This document shows positions 295-53,465 of a stretch of DNA of 64,000 bases, piece after piece. The stretch's first letter is position 1. Each line of letters begins with the position of its first letter. The translations under genes were made by a program, and so were the position numbers. The notes under the pieces were generated by a model that was not told where the DNA came from, made no database searches, and saw nothing but the letters and a program-made list of their open reading frames with translations. Source of the DNA: a virus; the UHGV virus genome UHGV-0092003. One strand, 5' to 3'.

Positions 295-471
295 TTATGT
301 ACTCCGAATATAAGTTATTGATTTTATGATATAGGTATTGCTTAATTTAGCATCTCAATTCTCTATCGTATGACTTTTGCACCGTCGTCAACAACCTTTC
401 TTTTCCGCTTTCAAAAACCCACGCCAGCGTTTATCATTTGGCGAAAATGGTAAGTAAGAACTTATTTAGGT

Positions 472-1212
472 ATGGACAGATTATTAGTGACACCAGACGG
501 GGCGAAGTACGAGTTCATGCAGGAAATGACTACCGCGGACATGGACAGATGGGTATCCGAGAACATCGGACTCTCTCGCTGTGCCGGCGAGACAGAGCTG
601 TTTGCAACAAAGTGGTTCGATTATCGCAACATGCATCCGCTGGTTGCCACCTGCCTTTTCTCTGAAATCTACAAAACTGAGTACGCACGAATCATGCTGA
701 CGCACGGTCGTGACGACTTCCAGCGTGCTCCATACCGCACCGGATTGAAGCGTGTTGCATATCAGGATCAGGGGATGGGTGTAAAAACATCTCTGTGGCG
801 TGCTCGCCAGTTCGCGGACAGGTATTGCTGTTCGTATGAGTATTACATCTCGACGATTCTAAGCATCGCGGCACAACGTCTTTGGGCCAATCTCCCGCGC
901 CCCCAGCATCTGTGGCAGGACGATTTGGTCGAAATCTTTGAGCAGAAGCTGGCACGCCGCTCCCAGATCCGCATCGATGACAGTATTTTCAGCTATCACA
1001 ACATGCCCCAGCTGGCAGCGCCCGAAATGCAGAAAGATTACTGCATGTGGGTTATCAGGCACATTGATGCAATGAAGCCCTCATCCCGCGTTAATGGCGT
1101 TCTCTCAGCCGTATATCTCCGCAGACTTATCCCGGAAACAGTGGCCGCTAAGCGATACCCAAAATTGATACATGAAGCGAGAGATCTGTATTTGAGCGCC
1201 TGTGAAGACTAA
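472..1212 (+). CDS. Hypothetical protein (246 aa)
   Basis: Long ORF with typical codon usage; no motif recognised. Confidence 0.5.
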   Translation: MDRLLVTPDGAKYEFMQEMTTADMDRWVSENIGLSRCAGETELFATKWFDYRNMHPLVATCLFSEIYKTEYARIMLTHGRDDFQRAPYRTGLKRVAYQDQGMGVKTSLWRARQFADRYCCSYEYYISTILSIAAQRLWANLPRPQHLWQDDLVEIFEQKLARRSQIRIDDSIFSYHNMPQLAAPEMQKDYCMWVIRHIDAMKPSSRVNGVLSAVYLRRLIPETVAAKRYPKLIHEARDLYLSACED

Positions 1213-1256
1213 TCATAATTCAGAAAACAAGTTGTTTAAAACAATAAGGAAAGCAC

Positions 1257-2618
1257 ATGAGTACCGTCCCTTCCACACTCGAAACACCTGTTCACACAGG
1301 ACGACCGTTATCTGAAGAGTTTGACGCCGGCTTTGAAGATCGACTGGCTGCTTACTACTGCCGCGACCGAGAGTTCCTGATTAGAGCCGGTGACTTGGTT
1401 CTGCCTGAGCAATTCTCAAACAAGGCGAATGGGTATCTGGTCAATATCGTTGCCGGTTACTTCCGCTCGTACAAAAGCTCGCCGTCGAAAGAGTTTATCA
1501 TCGACATGATCAAGGAAGCGAAGAAACGCGGAAAGATTCGCGAAGAGTTCGTACCTGAAGTCGTTGAGGCGATGAAGCGCATTCTGGCCGAAAAGCTGGA
1601 AGACACCGGTTACATGATTGACCGTGTTGTAACGTTCGCACGTTCCGTCGCCTTTGATGACGCGTTTATCAAAGCGGCCGAGCTGAAGGAGAAAGGCGAG
1701 TTTGAACGCGCGATGCAGGTCATGCAGAAGGTCGATCTGGTTGGCGCCTCTGATATGGACGACGTTTACGATTATCTCGCCCGAGCTGGGGAGCGTCACG
1801 AGCGTCGTGAGTATGAGGCGTCAGAAGACTTTATCCCAAACAGCATTACAACCGGCATTCCTCTGCTGGACAAAATGCTTCACCAGAAAGGCTGGGGGCG
1901 TAAAGAACTGGTGCTGTTTATGGGCTTCGCAAAGTCTGGTAAGTCGACGGCCATGGGTGAGTTCGGTATTAACGCCACGCTGAAAGGCTACAACGTCTTG
2001 TATGTCTCTCTGGAGGTTCACAAAGACATTCTTTCAGATCGTTGGGATGCTCGCATTTCTGAAACGGAAATGTCCAAGCTCATCGAACGCCGTGATGATA
2101 TCGCCGACAAACTGCGCTCAATAGGTGCTGGTTCGAAAGTGGGTAGCATGTGGATTGTTGAGCGTCGCGCTAACACGTTCTCACATGCAGATCTCGACCG
2201 TTTGCTCAGCAACATGAAAGCTAACGGGATGATGCCAGACATGGTCATTGTCGACTATGCGGATCTGATGCGTGCCACTACACCAACAAAAGACCCGCGC
2301 AATGATGTGAAAGACATTTACACCGACCTGCGTGCTGTGATGGATAAGCACGACGTGGCAGGTATGACAGCGTCCCAGACCAACCGTGAAGGTGGTGCCT
2401 CTGAAGTGGCAACGATGATGCACGCCGCGGACAACATCGAGAAGGTTCGTATTTGTGATTTGATTATCTCAATCAACAAAACCGAAGAGGAAGAGGCTAA
2501 AGGTGAGGCGCGTCTGTATTTTGCTGGTTCGCGTAACCAGAAAGGCGGGGTCAGTCTGCGCGTACTTCAGGATCTGGAACAAATGCGATTCATTAAGCGA
2601 ATCATTGACGTGATGTAA
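1257..2618 (+). CDS. DnaB-like replicative DNA helicase (RecA-fold)
   Basis: Walker A GFAKSGKST; the helicase motif DMVIVDYADLM...ASQTNREG resembles DnaB/T7 gp4 H2-H4. Consensus RBS AAGGAAAGCACATG. Confidence 0.85.
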   Translation: MSTVPSTLETPVHTGRPLSEEFDAGFEDRLAAYYCRDREFLIRAGDLVLPEQFSNKANGYLVNIVAGYFRSYKSSPSKEFIIDMIKEAKKRGKIREEFVPEVVEAMKRILAEKLEDTGYMIDRVVTFARSVAFDDAFIKAAELKEKGEFERAMQVMQKVDLVGASDMDDVYDYLARAGERHERREYEASEDFIPNSITTGIPLLDKMLHQKGWGRKELVLFMGFAKSGKSTAMGEFGINATLKGYNVLYVSLEVHKDILSDRWDARISETEMSKLIERRDDIADKLRSIGAGSKVGSMWIVERRANTFSHADLDRLLSNMKANGMMPDMVIVDYADLMRATTPTKDPRNDVKDIYTDLRAVMDKHDVAGMTASQTNREGGASEVATMMHAADNIEKVRICDLIISINKTEEEEAKGEARLYFAGSRNQKGGVSLRVLQDLEQMRFIKRIIDVM

Positions 2619-2704
2619 AAAAAAGGCGTTCCAAAACGGAGCGCCTTCACTTCAATTCAGAAATTCAAGCTTTCTTTTGCTAATAAAACCACAAAAGAAA
2701 ACAC

Positions 2705-2752
2705 ATGTACGGTCATATTAATCAATGGCCGGCTAAATGCAAGGTTTATTAA
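2705..2752 (+). CDS. 15-codon leader ORF (MYGHINQWPAKCKVY) translationally coupled to primase (TAAATG overlap)
   Basis: A consensus AAAGAAAACACATG initiation sequence sits on this mini-ORF, not on the primase ATG. Its stop overlaps the primase start. Confidence 0.3.
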   Translation: MYGHINQWPAKCKVY

Positions 2753-51938: not shown

Positions 51939-52163
51939 ATGACTTATGAAACAAACATCGTCGCCCTGGCGGAGAACGAATTTCTGGACAACACTCGGAA
52001 GCTGATGGAGAAGCGAGATACGGCCTTTAGTCTTTATCAATGGGTCGTTGATAGTCTGCGTGAAGGTAAACACACTGAAGAGATTGGGATGCTGGTTGGC
52101 GACCTGATTAACTCAAACTTTGCTCTTGAAGTGCAGCTAAAGGGTCGTGCCGGCGCTCGGTAG
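51939..52163 (+). CDS. Hypothetical protein (74 aa)
   Basis: AAAAGGA RBS. Confidence 0.45.
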   Translation: MTYETNIVALAENEFLDNTRKLMEKRDTAFSLYQWVVDSLREGKHTEEIGMLVGDLINSNFALEVQLKGRAGAR

Positions 52164-52199
52164 TAAGTAACAATTTACTTATGCGAGTGTGATATGTAT

Positions 52200-52740
52200 C
52201 ATTGTCGGGCCACCAATGGTGGCCCAAAATTTATTAGCAGCCAAGCTAATACAAAATGGCAACGACACCAGTCTCTCGGTGAGAAACGGTCGGGATTGGT
52301 GGAGCAGTAAAGAACCTTGAGCAAACGCTCTTGGGAAGGCCCAGACGGGATTTGTAGCATAGGGTCTGTATTGCCGGTGTGGGCGCGAAGTGGTAACTCG
52401 CGTCGGTTGAGGGCAAAAGCTACAGGGCTGTGAGACAGGGGGAGCGACTTAGATACCTGACTCACAGAATAAAAGCTCAACCATTAAATTCTAAGAGGAA
52501 CCTATACGAGTAAGCCCTTTCCACGAGAATGAGAGTGCTTACCAGTAGGGGGCGTTGCTGGACTTACACCTAACTTTTTCGATTAAAAAGACACTGATTC
52601 GACCGAACCGTTAAACAATATGGGTCGAAGTTTTTTTAACGAAATTGTTAGGATAAGTATGTCCAGCAGCCCCTACCGAGAGACATTAAAACATCAGCGA
52701 AACGGCGAAACAGAGAAGCGATAAAGCGACGAACTGGAAA
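52200..52740. other. ~540-bp non-coding, GC-rich region with dense self-complementarity (candidate structured RNA)
   Basis: No ORF of 60 aa or more in the gene orientation. Stems such as GGGCCACCAATGGTGGCCC and GCGCGAAGTGGTAACTCGCGTC. Confidence 0.3.
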
Positions 52741-52746
52741 GGCAAA

Positions 52747-53316
52747 ATGGCGAAGAAAACAACAAAACAAAAAGGCATCAAATACAACCGGCAGAAACAT
52801 GTCTCTGACAAAAACATGGCGACAAAATTTGACCCGCGCTTGAAAGAGGTTGTTCTGTATACGGACGGATCATGCCTGAAGAACCCAGGCGGTGCTGGTG
52901 GAGTTGCGGCCATCGTTCGTTTTGGCGAACACCATAAAACAGTTCAAGAAGGTTTTCGCTCCACAACCAATAACCGCATGGAAATGCTCGCTGCGATCCG
53001 AGGGTTGGATCTACTTAATCAAAAATGCAACGTGACGATCTACACGGATAGCCAGTACCTAATTAATGGCATTTCGCTGTGGATTAAAGGTTGGAAAAAG
53101 CGCGGCTGGAAGCTGGCGAACGGTGAGCGAGTTAAAAATGTGGATCTCTGGCAGGAATTGGATGCGGCGGTGTCCGGTCATCGTGTCCGTTGGTGTTGGG
53201 TCAAAGGCCATGATGGAAACCCAGACAATGAGCTATGCGACATGATGGCGCGATCGGCCGCTGAATCACCGACGATGGTTGATCGTATTTACGAATCAAT
53301 TTCTGCCTATAATTGA
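52747..53316 (+). CDS. rnhA: Ribonuclease HI
   Basis: VVLYTDGSC, TNNRMEMLAAI, IYTDSQY, WKKRGW, VKNVDLW, WCWVKGHDGNPDNELCD; basic N-terminal extension. Confidence 0.85.
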   Translation: MAKKTTKQKGIKYNRQKHVSDKNMATKFDPRLKEVVLYTDGSCLKNPGGAGGVAAIVRFGEHHKTVQEGFRSTTNNRMEMLAAIRGLDLLNQKCNVTIYTDSQYLINGISLWIKGWKKRGWKLANGERVKNVDLWQELDAAVSGHRVRWCWVKGHDGNPDNELCDMMARSAAESPTMVDRIYESISAYN

Positions 53317-53465
53317 TAAGTAAGTGTTTACTTAACCTTTCGTTTGTTGTATGTTTGATTTGCAAGGATGATGGCGCGGTTAGCGCCTGTCTCAGGGATG
53401 AGACGACCTGAAGGCGGCTGAGTTTTCTCAGCCGCAACTATTTTAAGGCTCCGTTAAGAGGCTTT

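Follow-up and report, generated by a model that had tools for sequence, protein, structure and literature searches.

What reads the short inverted repeat that recurs across this element, and what does it do to the genes that follow it? We analysed a window of 64,000 nucleotides from the virus genome UHGV-0092003, which is an SSU5-like phage-plasmid of Klebsiella pneumoniae. A preliminary description of this DNA had reported about 19 near-identical copies of a 22-bp perfect palindrome between 448 and 53337 and had suggested a dimeric DNA-binding regulator as their reader. A weight matrix built from motif sites, with a calling threshold of >12 bits, returned exactly 19 loci in the window, and the first and last of these match that span. 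Composition-matched shuffles had a mean best score of ~10 bits and exceeded 12 bits only occasionally, leaving almost no calls. Scanning the window with the pattern ATAAGTAAANNTTTACTTAT gave 7 matches at ≤2 mismatches and 13 at ≤3, where 0.00–0.01 were expected.

The copies are less regular than had been claimed. The unit is a 20-bp AT-rich imperfect inverted repeat, with weakly conserved ATG/CAT flanks rather than a 22-bp length, and the family consensus is A-TAAG-TAAG-TA-CTTA-CTTA-T. None of the 19 copies is a perfect palindrome (5–8 of the 10 symmetric pairs are complementary per copy), and they depart from the consensus at 2–6 positions, which is not near-identity. Half-sites occur in two registers, ATAAGTA-N2-TACTTAT and ATAAGTA-N6-TACTTAT, and a single 20-bp envelope with TA every 4 bp accommodates both. 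A 20–26-bp site with this TA spacing is unusual for a simple HTH dimer. Pairing, mismatch and folding analysis of the copies revealed no RNA-hairpin signatures. G.T and A.C mismatches were equally common (64 vs 56), no covariation was seen at position 4/15, and predicted hairpins were weak, with 18 sites folding at –0.3 to –4.9 kcal/mol and one giving no stable fold. These data support the idea that the motif is read as sequence and not through pairing. The 19 sites are as follows (window positions; no strand is assigned to any site).

450–469: site 1, GTAAGTAAGAACTTATTTAG, 21 bits; 13 nt 3′ of a predicted –10 (TTCAAA-16-TATCAT, 410–437) and 2 nt before ATG 472 of the opening gene of the DnaB-helicase operon; this –10/site/ATG arrangement is kept in SSU5, Cyrano and the main Klebsiella clade
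3876–3895: site 2 (matrix locus 3876/3880), core ATAAGTATTTACTTAT, 29 bits; separates a primase-like gene (end 3868) from ORF 3934–4851 and is followed by a TG-extended –10-like element, TTGTATAAGAT
4909–4928: site 3, ATAAGTAAACATTTACTATA, 18 bits; overlaps the RBS 7 nt before ATG 4936 of an operon whose final gene is DNA ligase (5858–7186)
7982–8001: site 4, ATAAATAAGTGTTTACTTAT, 31 bits; 3′ of ORF 7738–7980 and upstream of a tmRNA-like/tRNA-Phe region
9891–9910: site 5, ATAAGTAATGATTTACTTAT, 28 bits; 14 nt past a terminator-like hairpin (9855–9876) and 50 nt before phoH (9961–10728)
15681–15700: site 6, GTAAGTAACTACATATTTAT, 21 bits; in the divergent region between an HTH gene and a 72-aa ORF, 37 nt before the minus-strand HTH gene's start codon
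16196–16215: site 7, AATAGTAAGCACTTATTTAT, 21 bits; 8–14 nt downstream of predicted –10 boxes (ends 16182 and 16188) and 9 nt before the cobT ATG at 16225
18258–18277: site 8, ATAAGTAAATACTTATTTCT, 25 bits; separates cobT (end 18237) from a CobS-like AAA ATPase gene (18335–19585), with a TG-extended –10-like element, TGTTATATA, 5 nt 3′
23814–23833: site 9, ATAAGTAAGGATTTACTATG, 18 bits; past ORF 23363–23785, overlapping the ATG start of a short hydrophobic ORF and preceding a UvsY-like gene (23995–24435)
24438–24457: site 10, ATAAGTGATCGCTTATCTAT, 23 bits; within a predicted promoter (TTGATA-17-TATCAT, 24432–24460) upstream of a gp32-like SSB gene (24502–25479)
29150–29169: site 11, ATAAGTAAGCACTTATTTAT, 33 bits, the top-scoring copy; occupies the spacer and –10 of a predicted promoter (TTGATG-17-TATTAT, 29144–29172) of a membrane-protein/SPFH operon, an arrangement that recurs in SSU5 and Cyrano (TTGAAA-17-TATCAT)
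32378–32397: site 12, ATAAGTAGACATTTATCTAT, 25 bits; includes the –35 of a predicted promoter (TAGACA-16-TATTAT, 32383–32410) near a small membrane ORF starting at 32409
36263–36282: site 13, ATAAATAAGTGGTTACTTAT, 27 bits; upstream of sbcD (36370–37455), with a TG-preceded –10-like box 6–8 nt 3′
40659–40678: site 14, ATAAGTAAGAATTTACTTAT, 26 bits; within a predicted promoter (TTGATA-17-TACTAT, 40656–40684), followed by a conserved hairpin and T-run (40685–40706) and then nrdA
45670–45689: site 15, ATAAGTAAATACTTATTGAT, 24 bits; within a predicted promoter (TTGATA-18-TATATT, 45667–45696), 3′ of a MazG-like gene
45811–45830: site 16, ATAAGTAAATCATTACTTAC, 26 bits; 14 nt before the thyA ATG at 45845, overlapping the RBS region
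51121–51140: site 17, ATAAGTAAATGTTTACCTAT, 27 bits; begins in the final bases of a predicted –10 (TTGTTA-16-TAAAAT, 51095–51122) and therefore covers the expected transcription start of the dam methyltransferase gene
52163–52182: site 18, GTAAGTAACAATTTACTTAT, 15 bits; overlaps the stop of ORF 51939–52163, and its right half is the –35 of a predicted promoter (TTTACT-17-TATCAT, 52174–52202)
53316–53335: site 19, ATAAGTAAGTGTTTACTTAA, 27 bits; overlaps the rnhA stop codon (rnhA 52747–53316), upstream of ORF 53466–53942

By gene calls all 19 copies are intergenic, any overlap being limited to a stop or start codon. When ORFs were masked crudely, 16 of the 19 site centres lay outside long ORFs (22% of the window; P = 1e-8). 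The copies reported upstream of the helicase and ligase operons, phoH, cobT, SSB, sbcD, nrdA, thyA and dam were all found there. For rnhA, one copy does lie ~580 nt upstream, but another is directly past its stop codon. The complete genomes of pMB7868_2, Salmonella phage SSU5 and E. coli phage Cyrano each carry 27 copies, and Cyrano yields this number even though it was left out of matrix training. The whole element has about 27 copies, with 19 in the window. Using the ORF mask on whole genomes, 23–26 of the 27 site centres fell outside long ORFs. The copies of these relatives occupy matching intergenic positions, and they do so among the window, SSU5 and Cyrano although the proteins are only 40–75% identical and the flanks have diverged; copies also occur in the capsid, tail and lysis modules of the relatives. 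The motif is kept along with the element from Klebsiella to Yersinia and Photorhabdus. We found no description of it in the searchable literature.

We compared the sites with predicted promoters. Of 29 sigma70-like promoters predicted on the plus strand in positions 1–60000, 10 touch a motif site, where chance overlaps are estimated at <1; all promoter assignments come from consensus matching in AT-rich DNA, with some of the hexamers (TTGATA, TTTACT) supplied by the motif itself. The preliminary statement that the motif is not a sigma70 –35/–10 pair is right for the motif itself, but the motif does overlap such pairs. The –10 box may end as much as 14 nt before the motif start or as much as 39 nt past it, and relative to conserved sigma70-like hexamers the motif may be past the start site, within the spacer or over the –35. 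Three layouts are each conserved between genomes. In the helicase operon the site covers roughly +5 to +25 of TTCAAA-N16/17-TATCAT; in the SPFH, nrdA and SSB operons it occupies the spacer together with the –10; and at the post-primase, DUF4942 and sbcD positions it overlies the –35 of TG-extended –10 boxes. This variable geometry fits an operator and does not fit a fixed promoter element. Several sites lack a recognisable promoter, among them those following the capsid gene, between terminase and portal, and in front of thyA. A terminator-like hairpin trails the motif at nrdA and some late-region sites, and a simple operator model gives no account of these hairpins.

The gene most closely tied to the motif is the following.

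15339–15644, minus strand: candidate cognate repressor, a 101-aa Xre/Cro-CI-type HTH protein (Pfam HTH_3, phrog_8)

It adjoins the integrase gene and is divergent from the 72-aa ORF. Homologues occur in about 830 SSU5-like plasmids, and the syntenic Cyrano homologue, CYRAN_45, is 49% identical. Motif copies are present in the control region of the HTH gene itself in five clades, all those examined. In the window, the main Klebsiella clade, Cyrano and pMT1 a copy lies 31–37 nt upstream of its start codon, and the divergent control region has three copies in Photorhabdus and three in Acinetobacter. The motif of the Acinetobacter relative is ATCAGTCAGTACTGACTGAT, in which TAAG has become TCAG in all four units (14 sites vs 1.7 in shuffles). 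The predicted recognition helix is N36–K42, with N34 before it; in the Acinetobacter protein R replaces N34, whereas all enteric homologues retain N34 together with the TAAG motif. This co-variation is a single evolutionary transition between enterics and Acinetobacter, in which the host differs too. In Cyrano lysogens CYRAN_45, named a putative repressor, had 96 normalised counts and the first genes behind motif sites mostly had 5–11 counts, which is background; the exceptions, both preceded by the motif, were CYRAN_34 (44) and the tRNA region (CYRAN_40; 151) (PMC9928086). The predicted structure is a confident Xre-type domain with a long C-terminal helix. Its nearest solved folds are restriction–modification C-proteins, Stl and the 434 repressor, which bind operators as dimers or tetramers.

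Based on these comparisons, we consider with moderate confidence that the 20-bp inverted repeat is the operator of an element-encoded repressor, most probably the HTH protein, that keeps the viral genes silent. Of the options raised for a dimeric regulator, the variable geometry, the control-region copies, the co-change in Acinetobacter and the lysogen expression favour a repressor and this HTH gene, already named as a candidate. The partition-silencer and phage-specific-promoter options are disfavoured. The second binder suggested, a multi-HTH protein (28353–29078), is not supported; it has no Pfam or PHROG match and is a clade-specific insertion. It is absent from SSU5 and Cyrano, yet the neighbouring site is retained there.

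The main alternative, which we regard as unlikely, is that the motif is a positive promoter element used by a phage activator or sigma-appropriation factor of the T4 MotA, P1 Lpa or Mu C type; such a factor would replace the –35 box and turn on middle and late operons in lytic growth. Many sites do sit at the –35 position before TG-extended –10-like boxes without a good –35, almost every lytic operon, late ones among them, has a site in front of it, lytically growing SSU5 retains them without the HTH gene, and silence of the marked operons in lysogens is equally compatible. However, the distance from motif start to –10 end (–14 to +39) is not fixed. The helicase and cobT sites are 3′ of a conserved –10 and abut the start codon, and the SPFH, nrdA and SSB sites fill a complete –35/–10 spacer, positions unsuited to an activator. 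In addition, the annotations of pMB7868_2, SSU5 and Cyrano list no sigma factor, RNA polymerase or known late activator, and sites that cluster where an Xre-type repressor gene is controlled are typical of operators.

Virion-isolated SSU5 lacks the HTH gene and has 27 good sites, which suggests either recent gene loss or that another protein reads the motif. We give somewhat less credence still to this second option, in which the HTH gene is merely one target. Candidate readers are a conserved 71-aa protein (7371–7586), a phrog_1444 'transcriptional repressor' encoded outside the window and a Cro-like product of the divergent small ORF; homologues of SSU5_046 and SSU5_121 are in all three genomes. 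By contrast, the 71-aa protein falls in a PHROG that has no assigned function, the divergent 72-aa ORF is acidic with no family match, and the motif change parallels the change in the HTH recognition region.

It is improbable that the motif is a Fur-, IHF- or H-NS-like AT-rich site through which a global regulator or nucleoid protein of the host silences the element's genes or sets their timing. The site is AT-rich, its GATAA...TTATC ends presumably resemble the ends of a Fur box, and the motif differs between enteric and Acinetobacter hosts. However, in every clade sites cluster in the control region of the repressor gene that the element itself carries, the motif travels with the element from Klebsiella to Yersinia and Photorhabdus, and we know of no E. 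coli regulator whose consensus matches the 4-bp periodic TAAG architecture. Least probable of all is an RNA or ssDNA hairpin serving in processing, nut-like antitermination, translational control or termination: several sites fall between a predicted –10 and a start codon and so would be transcribed, terminator-like hairpins come after several sites and both registers fold with 4-nt loops, but stems and complementarity are as weak as described above, G.T pairs are not favoured, 4/15 does not covary and other sites lie upstream of the predicted start.

Returning to the repressor reading, we compared it with known systems. P1 is a phage-plasmid in which the C1 repressor controls many operons, its own gene included, through well over a dozen scattered operators, and induction is by antirepressor with no self-cleavage. 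The element studied here is likewise a phage-plasmid with a proposed single repressor, scattered putative operators that include its own gene, and probable antirepressor induction. Unlike here, the P1 operators are asymmetric 17-mers rather than 20-bp inverted repeats, C1 has 283 aa whereas the candidate is an Xre-type protein of 101–128 aa with HTH_3 as sole match, and P1 late genes are controlled indirectly via Lpa whereas the capsid, tail and lysis operons of the relatives bear sites.

Lambdoid CI/Cro, 434 and P22 switches also have an HTH_3 repressor gene divergent from lytic genes, inverted-repeat operators over sigma70 promoters and, as in the Photorhabdus and Acinetobacter relatives, several copies in the repressor's control region. 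They differ in having 14–17-bp operators at 2–3 control regions and late genes run by antitermination, as opposed to 20-bp genome-wide sites with a 4-bp periodic TAAG/CTTA substructure, and the HTH candidate has no S24 peptidase domain. The C proteins C.Esp1396I and C.AhdI share the small Xre fold, bind palindromic operators as dimers or tetramers and regulate their own gene. The HTH model matches them with TM-scores of 0.53–0.55 on query length and ≤0.77 on the shorter target, but identity is only 15–20%, Foldseek E-values are ~0.01–0.1, and C proteins control one promoter region rather than a genome-wide set.

Cluster A mycobacteriophages (L5, Bxb1, TipsytheTRex) have >20 immunity-repressor sites genome-wide, operators plus 'stoperators', which occur both at promoters and within the short gaps separating genes in early and late operons; the stoperators are asymmetric 13-mers, orientation-dependent and bound by a monomer with two DNA-binding domains (PMC9283540). 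The distributed sites are alike and ~27 per genome is of the same order, but here the motif is symmetric, the candidate is a small single-domain Xre protein and an elongation block is conjectured.

The sites with their enrichment, conservation and placement against conserved hexamers, the co-variation with the HTH protein and the expression pattern in Cyrano are observations; from them we infer promoter activity of the hexamers, binding by the HTH protein, repression as its result and the induction route below. While the element is a plasmid in the lysogen, a dimer or higher oligomer of the repressor would sit on ~27 operators, 19 of them in the window, at or slightly beyond the promoters of almost all lytic operons, from replication, recombination and nucleotide metabolism to capsid, tail and lysis. 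Occupied operators would occlude host sigma70 RNA polymerase; at sites without an evident promoter, bound protein could be a roadblock beside the ribosome-binding site. Through the copies in its own control region, the repressor would regulate itself and form a lysis–lysogeny switch. Because the repressor has no self-cleavage domain, induction is probably via an antirepressor, the product of the Ant/Rha-like gene at 54621–55409. If this is true, the regulon would be laid out as a genome-wide repressor–operator system like that of P1 C1 or mycobacteriophage L5.

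The positions 1-25000 are 100% identical to pMB7868_2 of Klebsiella pneumoniae (NZ_CP103584.1, 111.6 kb) and positions 27001-52000 are 99% identical to NZ_CP057316.1. We assigned the window to the SSU5 group of phage-plasmids by gene content and weak DNA matches; at the protein level, identity to Salmonella phage SSU5 and E. coli phage Cyrano is only 40-75%. Nearly all of the genes are on the plus strand and serve DNA replication, recombination, and nucleotide metabolism. The few on the minus strand include repB and an Xre-type HTH gene that adjoins an integrase gene.

The preliminary description noted about 19 copies of a 22-bp perfect palindrome lying just upstream of genes in this DNA. 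Using that pattern we obtained 7 matches with up to two mismatches and 13 with up to three, where 0.00-0.01 were expected. With a weight matrix, exactly 19 loci scored above 12 bits, a level that composition-matched shuffles exceeded only occasionally, their best scores averaging approximately 10 bits. The repeated motif is therefore real and far above shuffles at these 19 loci, but the perfect symmetry did not hold up. The 20-bp consensus, ATAAGTAAGTACTTACTTAT, is a palindrome but none of the 19 individual copies is, with 5-8 of the 10 pairs being symmetric and 2-6 positions being off consensus. When read as half-sites, the copies in the window fall into two registers, N2 and N6. The ideas of two spacing classes, with half-sites 2 or 6 bp apart, and of a variable-stem hairpin were dropped because alignment with SSU5 and Cyrano gave a single 20-bp envelope. 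This family envelope is A-TAAG-TAAG-TA-CTTA-CTTA-T, where T5 and A14 are invariant, T1 and A18 are nearly so, and a TA step occurs every 4 bp. For a simple HTH dimer, a site of 20-26 bp with a 4-bp period is unusual.

According to the gene calls, all 19 copies are intergenic or overlap just a stop or start codon, and with a crude ORF mask 16 of the 19 centres are outside long ORFs, in a fraction that makes up 22% of the window (P = 1e-8). The same weight matrix found 27 sites each in pMB7868_2, SSU5, and Cyrano over 100-111 kb, with Cyrano having been left out of matrix training. Both the enrichment of the motif and its conservation in relatives were thus borne out. In the window, SSU5, and Cyrano, sites are in corresponding gaps, namely those ahead of the helicase operon, the tRNA region, cobS, SSB, the SPFH operon, sbcD, nrdA, thyA, and dam, and those that follow primase and rnhA. 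Across the whole genomes there are also sites in the terminase-portal gap, behind the capsid gene, inside the tail operon, and before the tail fibre and holin genes. Because sites also occur at these capsid, tail, fibre, and holin loci, the putative regulon spans the whole lytic programme, beyond the window. Yersinia pestis pMT1 and a Photorhabdus relative keep remnant sites. Footprinting with close relatives was uninformative since the loci are 81-100% identical and thus too similar, and a scan of viral contigs with the exact pattern returned a mixture of SSU5-like and chance matches.

The motif could be an operator or it could be a promoter element in its own right. A positive promoter element needs a single fixed geometry, whereas a repressor needs overlap alone. 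Overall there was no enrichment of sigma70-like promoters (16-18 per 20 kb versus 21-25 in shuffles). Of 29 sigma70-like promoters predicted on the plus strand of window 1-60000, ten touch a copy, with less than one estimated by chance; these calls are consensus matches in AT-rich DNA and some hexamers are supplied by the motif itself. Measured from the motif start, the end of the -10 box is anywhere between 14 nt upstream and 39 nt downstream, and three layouts of site and promoter recur in the window, SSU5, and Cyrano. At the helicase operon a conserved TTCAAA-N16/17-TAT(C/G)AT is 10-13 nt upstream of the site, which would therefore cover approximately +5 to +25 and abut the ribosome-binding site. 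The SPFH, nrdA, and SSB operons have a complete predicted -35/-10 pair, with the site taking up the spacer and extending to the -10. In the third layout, seen behind primase, behind DUF4942, and ahead of sbcD, the site is over the -35 position belonging to a TG-extended -10 box. A fixed-geometry promoter element was dropped since an apparent TG/-10 at +25/+28 is seen in a subset of sites only. Likewise, the variable -10 distance and the lack of any annotated polymerase or sigma factor gene in pMB7868_2, SSU5, and Cyrano led us to reject a phage-specific promoter of the T7/N4 RNA polymerase, T4 late/middle, or P1 Lpa type.

No promoter was seen at the sites before thyA, before the ligase operon, and after the capsid gene. 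These promoterless sites abut a ribosome-binding site or a terminator-like hairpin, and a protein bound there might act as a roadblock, which is an unsupported possibility. Terminator-like hairpins follow several sites and the operator model gives no account of them. One GC-rich hairpin with a T-run is between the nrdA promoter/operator and the start codon (window 40685-40706, SSU5 at about 67805, Cyrano at about 67912) and might act as a leader attenuator or as a 5' stabiliser. In SSU5 and Cyrano, comparable hairpins follow the sites downstream of capsid and tail genes.

A structured RNA element, such as a hairpin operator, nut site, or terminator, was rejected because the mismatches show no preference for wobble pairs and folding is weak. 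Over 68 sites, G.T mismatches were as common as A.C (64 versus 56), non-wobble mismatches were frequent, and there was no covariation at the sole G-C pair (position 4/15). When the 20-mers were folded as RNA, 18 sites gave -0.3 to -4.9 kcal/mol and one had no stable fold. Since the sequence of the arms is conserved and their pairing is not, the motif appears to be read as double-stranded DNA by a protein. A parS centromere or replication iterons were rejected because copies occur genome-wide, one per operon, with no clustering at repB (33482-34594) and only one weak copy near parB. Likeness to a Fur box is presumably limited to the GATAA/TTATC ends.

Two proteins had been proposed as the regulator, and a further one emerged from family matches:
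15339-15644, minus strand: HTH gene; the 101-aa product matches HTH_3 and phrog_8 'transcriptional regulator'
28353-29078: gene for a 241-aa 'multi-HTH' protein; no family match, absent from SSU5 and Cyrano
pMB7868_2 26677-27225, outside the window: match to phrog_1444 'transcriptional repressor', conserved as SSU5_121 and CYRAN_114

The second of these can be set aside on the grounds listed, and the phrog_1444 protein is a second candidate regulator. The case for the 101-aa HTH protein as putative repressor draws on sites in its own control region, on lysogen expression of its Cyrano homologue, and on co-variation in Acinetobacter. In the window, the main Klebsiella clade, Cyrano, and pMT1, the HTH start codon is preceded at 31-37 nt by a motif copy or a GGTAAGnnCTTACC core, and the divergent HTH control regions of Photorhabdus and Acinetobacter have three copies each. 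The Cyrano homologue, CYRAN_45, shares 49% identity and the gene order integrase, HTH, small divergent ORF, cobT, and is listed as a putative master repressor (PMC9928086). In LF82 lysogens CYRAN_45 has 96 normalised counts, about 10-fold over the prophage background (Table 1, PMC9928086). In the Cyrano lysogen the first genes behind most motif sites have 5-11 and plasmid-maintenance and toxin-antitoxin genes 50-600, and CYRAN_34 and the tRNA region are expressed despite their upstream sites (PMC9928086). The AlphaFold model of the HTH protein is confident (pLDDT 89) and has an Xre domain and a long C-terminal helix. Its nearest structures are operator binders that form dimers or tetramers, such as restriction-modification C-proteins, Stl, and 434 repressor. 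A sequence search of solved structures gave nothing significant.

Searches with the HTH protein matched approximately 830 SSU5-like plasmids (from Klebsiella, E. coli, Enterobacter, Salmonella, Citrobacter, and Yersinia pestis pMT1) and an Acinetobacter lineage. The syntenic A. baumannii plasmid NZ_CP115638.1 is without the enteric motif and carries ATCAGTCAGTACTGACTGAT, with 14 copies in 39.5 kb versus 1.7 in shuffles. Relative to the enteric motif, TAAG is changed to TCAG in all four units. The Acinetobacter HTH has an arginine at N34, directly before the recognition helix, and all enteric homologues examined keep both asparagine and TAAG. Because asparagine usually contacts adenine and arginine usually contacts guanine, the N34 change would be chemically sensible. 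This co-variation is the strongest single argument for the HTH protein as putative binder; it represents one evolutionary event that coincides with a change of host. Representative genomes scanned with the HTH alignment gave one unrelated Lichenibacterium locus, where the motif was absent. A syntenic and more divergent homologue, P0085, was found in sample ERZ1426841, and three distant homologues, P0083, P0076, and P0080, are on non-syntenic short contigs. P0080, which is 31% identical and outside an SSU5 context, has a distinct 19-bp palindrome approximately 20 nt upstream of its start codon, in two contigs:
L218 338-356 and L219 455-473: palindrome TCAATTCATCGTGAATTGA, upstream of P0080
The P0080 palindrome is consistent with autoregulation being a trait of this family; it was left aside in weighing the case for the HTH protein.

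The HTH gene is missing from SSU5, which keeps 27 good sites. A segment of about 4 kb with glutaredoxin, integrase, and HTH genes (window 11700-16200) is missing from the virion-isolated SSU5 at 42597-42760 and is present in Cyrano and in the approximately 830 plasmids. Loss of this segment may explain the lytic behaviour of SSU5. In pMT1, the F1 capsule operon (caf1R, caf1M, caf1A, caf1) at 21012-26140 is inserted directly beside the integrase-HTH module, and the flank of this module is a cargo hot spot next to a putative immunity region in that plasmid.

The preliminary interpretation of the motif as a regulon marker was essentially right, also in naming the HTH gene though not in naming the 241-aa protein, and the motif is real and biologically meaningful. 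It is best filed as a probable genome-wide repressor-operator regulon. The P1 C1 regulon is that of a phage-plasmid with many dispersed operators, and has an asymmetric 17-bp operator. Like it, the system described here has 27 sites over a phage-plasmid genome at separate operons; unlike it, the site is a symmetric 20-mer and the candidate matches HTH_3 and phrog_8 only. The motif system resembles P1 C1 in its functional layout and is not a member, being set apart by site type and family matches. With lambdoid CI/Cro, the protein and the type of site are alike, but lambdoid sites are confined to two or three control regions. Cluster A mycobacteriophages have an operator/'stoperator' system in which the repressor has over 20 sites, located at promoters and in the short gaps between genes; stoperators are asymmetric 13-bp sites, oriented with transcription, and bound by a two-domain monomer (PMC9283540). 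Here the layout alone is alike, with a palindromic site and a 101-aa single-domain Xre fold instead. No description of the motif sequence or of SSU5, pHCM2, or pMT1 operators, nor of lysis-lysogeny control in SSU5-like phage-plasmids, was found in the searchable full-text literature.

A more far-reaching joint reading can be put forward, which we regard as doubtful. One small Xre-type repressor would directly gate every lytic operon of SSU5-like phage-plasmids, including capsid, tail, and lysis, with no cascade. The symmetric sites would be both operators and stoperator-like roadblocks at ribosome-binding sites, the first such in Gram-negative bacteria. The (TAAG)2-TA-(CTTA)2 site, in which TA returns at 4-bp intervals, would stem from an unusual reading by several subunits, with a specificity that a single residue, N34R, could reprogram (TAAG to TCAG).

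A second dispersed palindrome, AAACAAnTTGTTT, was also observed, with 15 copies in the window, 13 in SSU5, 12 in Cyrano, and 19 in pMB7868_2:
Window 1226, 22151, 22176, 30294, 32070, 47802, 53969, 55462: AAACAAnTTGTTT copies 1-8
Window 57528, 58540, 58591, 61142, 61435, 62364, 62897: AAACAAnTTGTTT copies 9-15
Those at 57528, 58540, 61142, and 61435 lie over the -35, with a GATAAT -10-like box about 19 nt downstream, and the boxes at 57528 and 61142 are TG-extended. Other copies are 15-25 nt upstream of a conserved AAGGAAAnCACATG start region. This palindrome is dominant in the 54-64 kb segment, which has zero copies of the 20-bp motif, and it looks like a separate regulon. Two copies are in a cassette of about 60 nt, together with a ATAAGTAA half-site and a strong ribosome-binding site, that splits the DNA polymerase III alpha gene (19763-23366) into ORFs 19763-22135 and 22146-23366. 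In SSU5 and Cyrano this gene is a single ORF.

Directly downstream of site 7982 is a tmRNA-like gene (7966-8370), which matched Rfam tmRNA_permuted with 34.1 bits (E = 7e-5), under the gathering score of 47. There is a match to a tmRNA 3' end at 8344-8360 and a tag frame at 8084-8116 (ANDDVVLMAA-stop). Positions 8042-8197 have 86-94% identity to unannotated DNA in many large Klebsiella, E. coli, and Salmonella phages. ARAGORN reported only a tRNA-Phe (8775-8857).

SSU5-like phage-plasmids are very common in clinical Enterobacteriaceae and can carry cargo beside the integrase-HTH module, for example the caf1 capsule operon in pMT1. The TAAG-to-TCAG switch is a natural specificity pair for the engineering of orthogonal repressors. 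Cyrano is induced by ciprofloxacin (PMC9928086). Given the operator, the candidate repressor, and the positions of about 27 putatively controlled operons, immunity between elements, induction by antibiotics, and the reason for the lytic behaviour of SSU5 would become directly testable. If the repressor model is true, SSU5 would be a repressor-less derivative.
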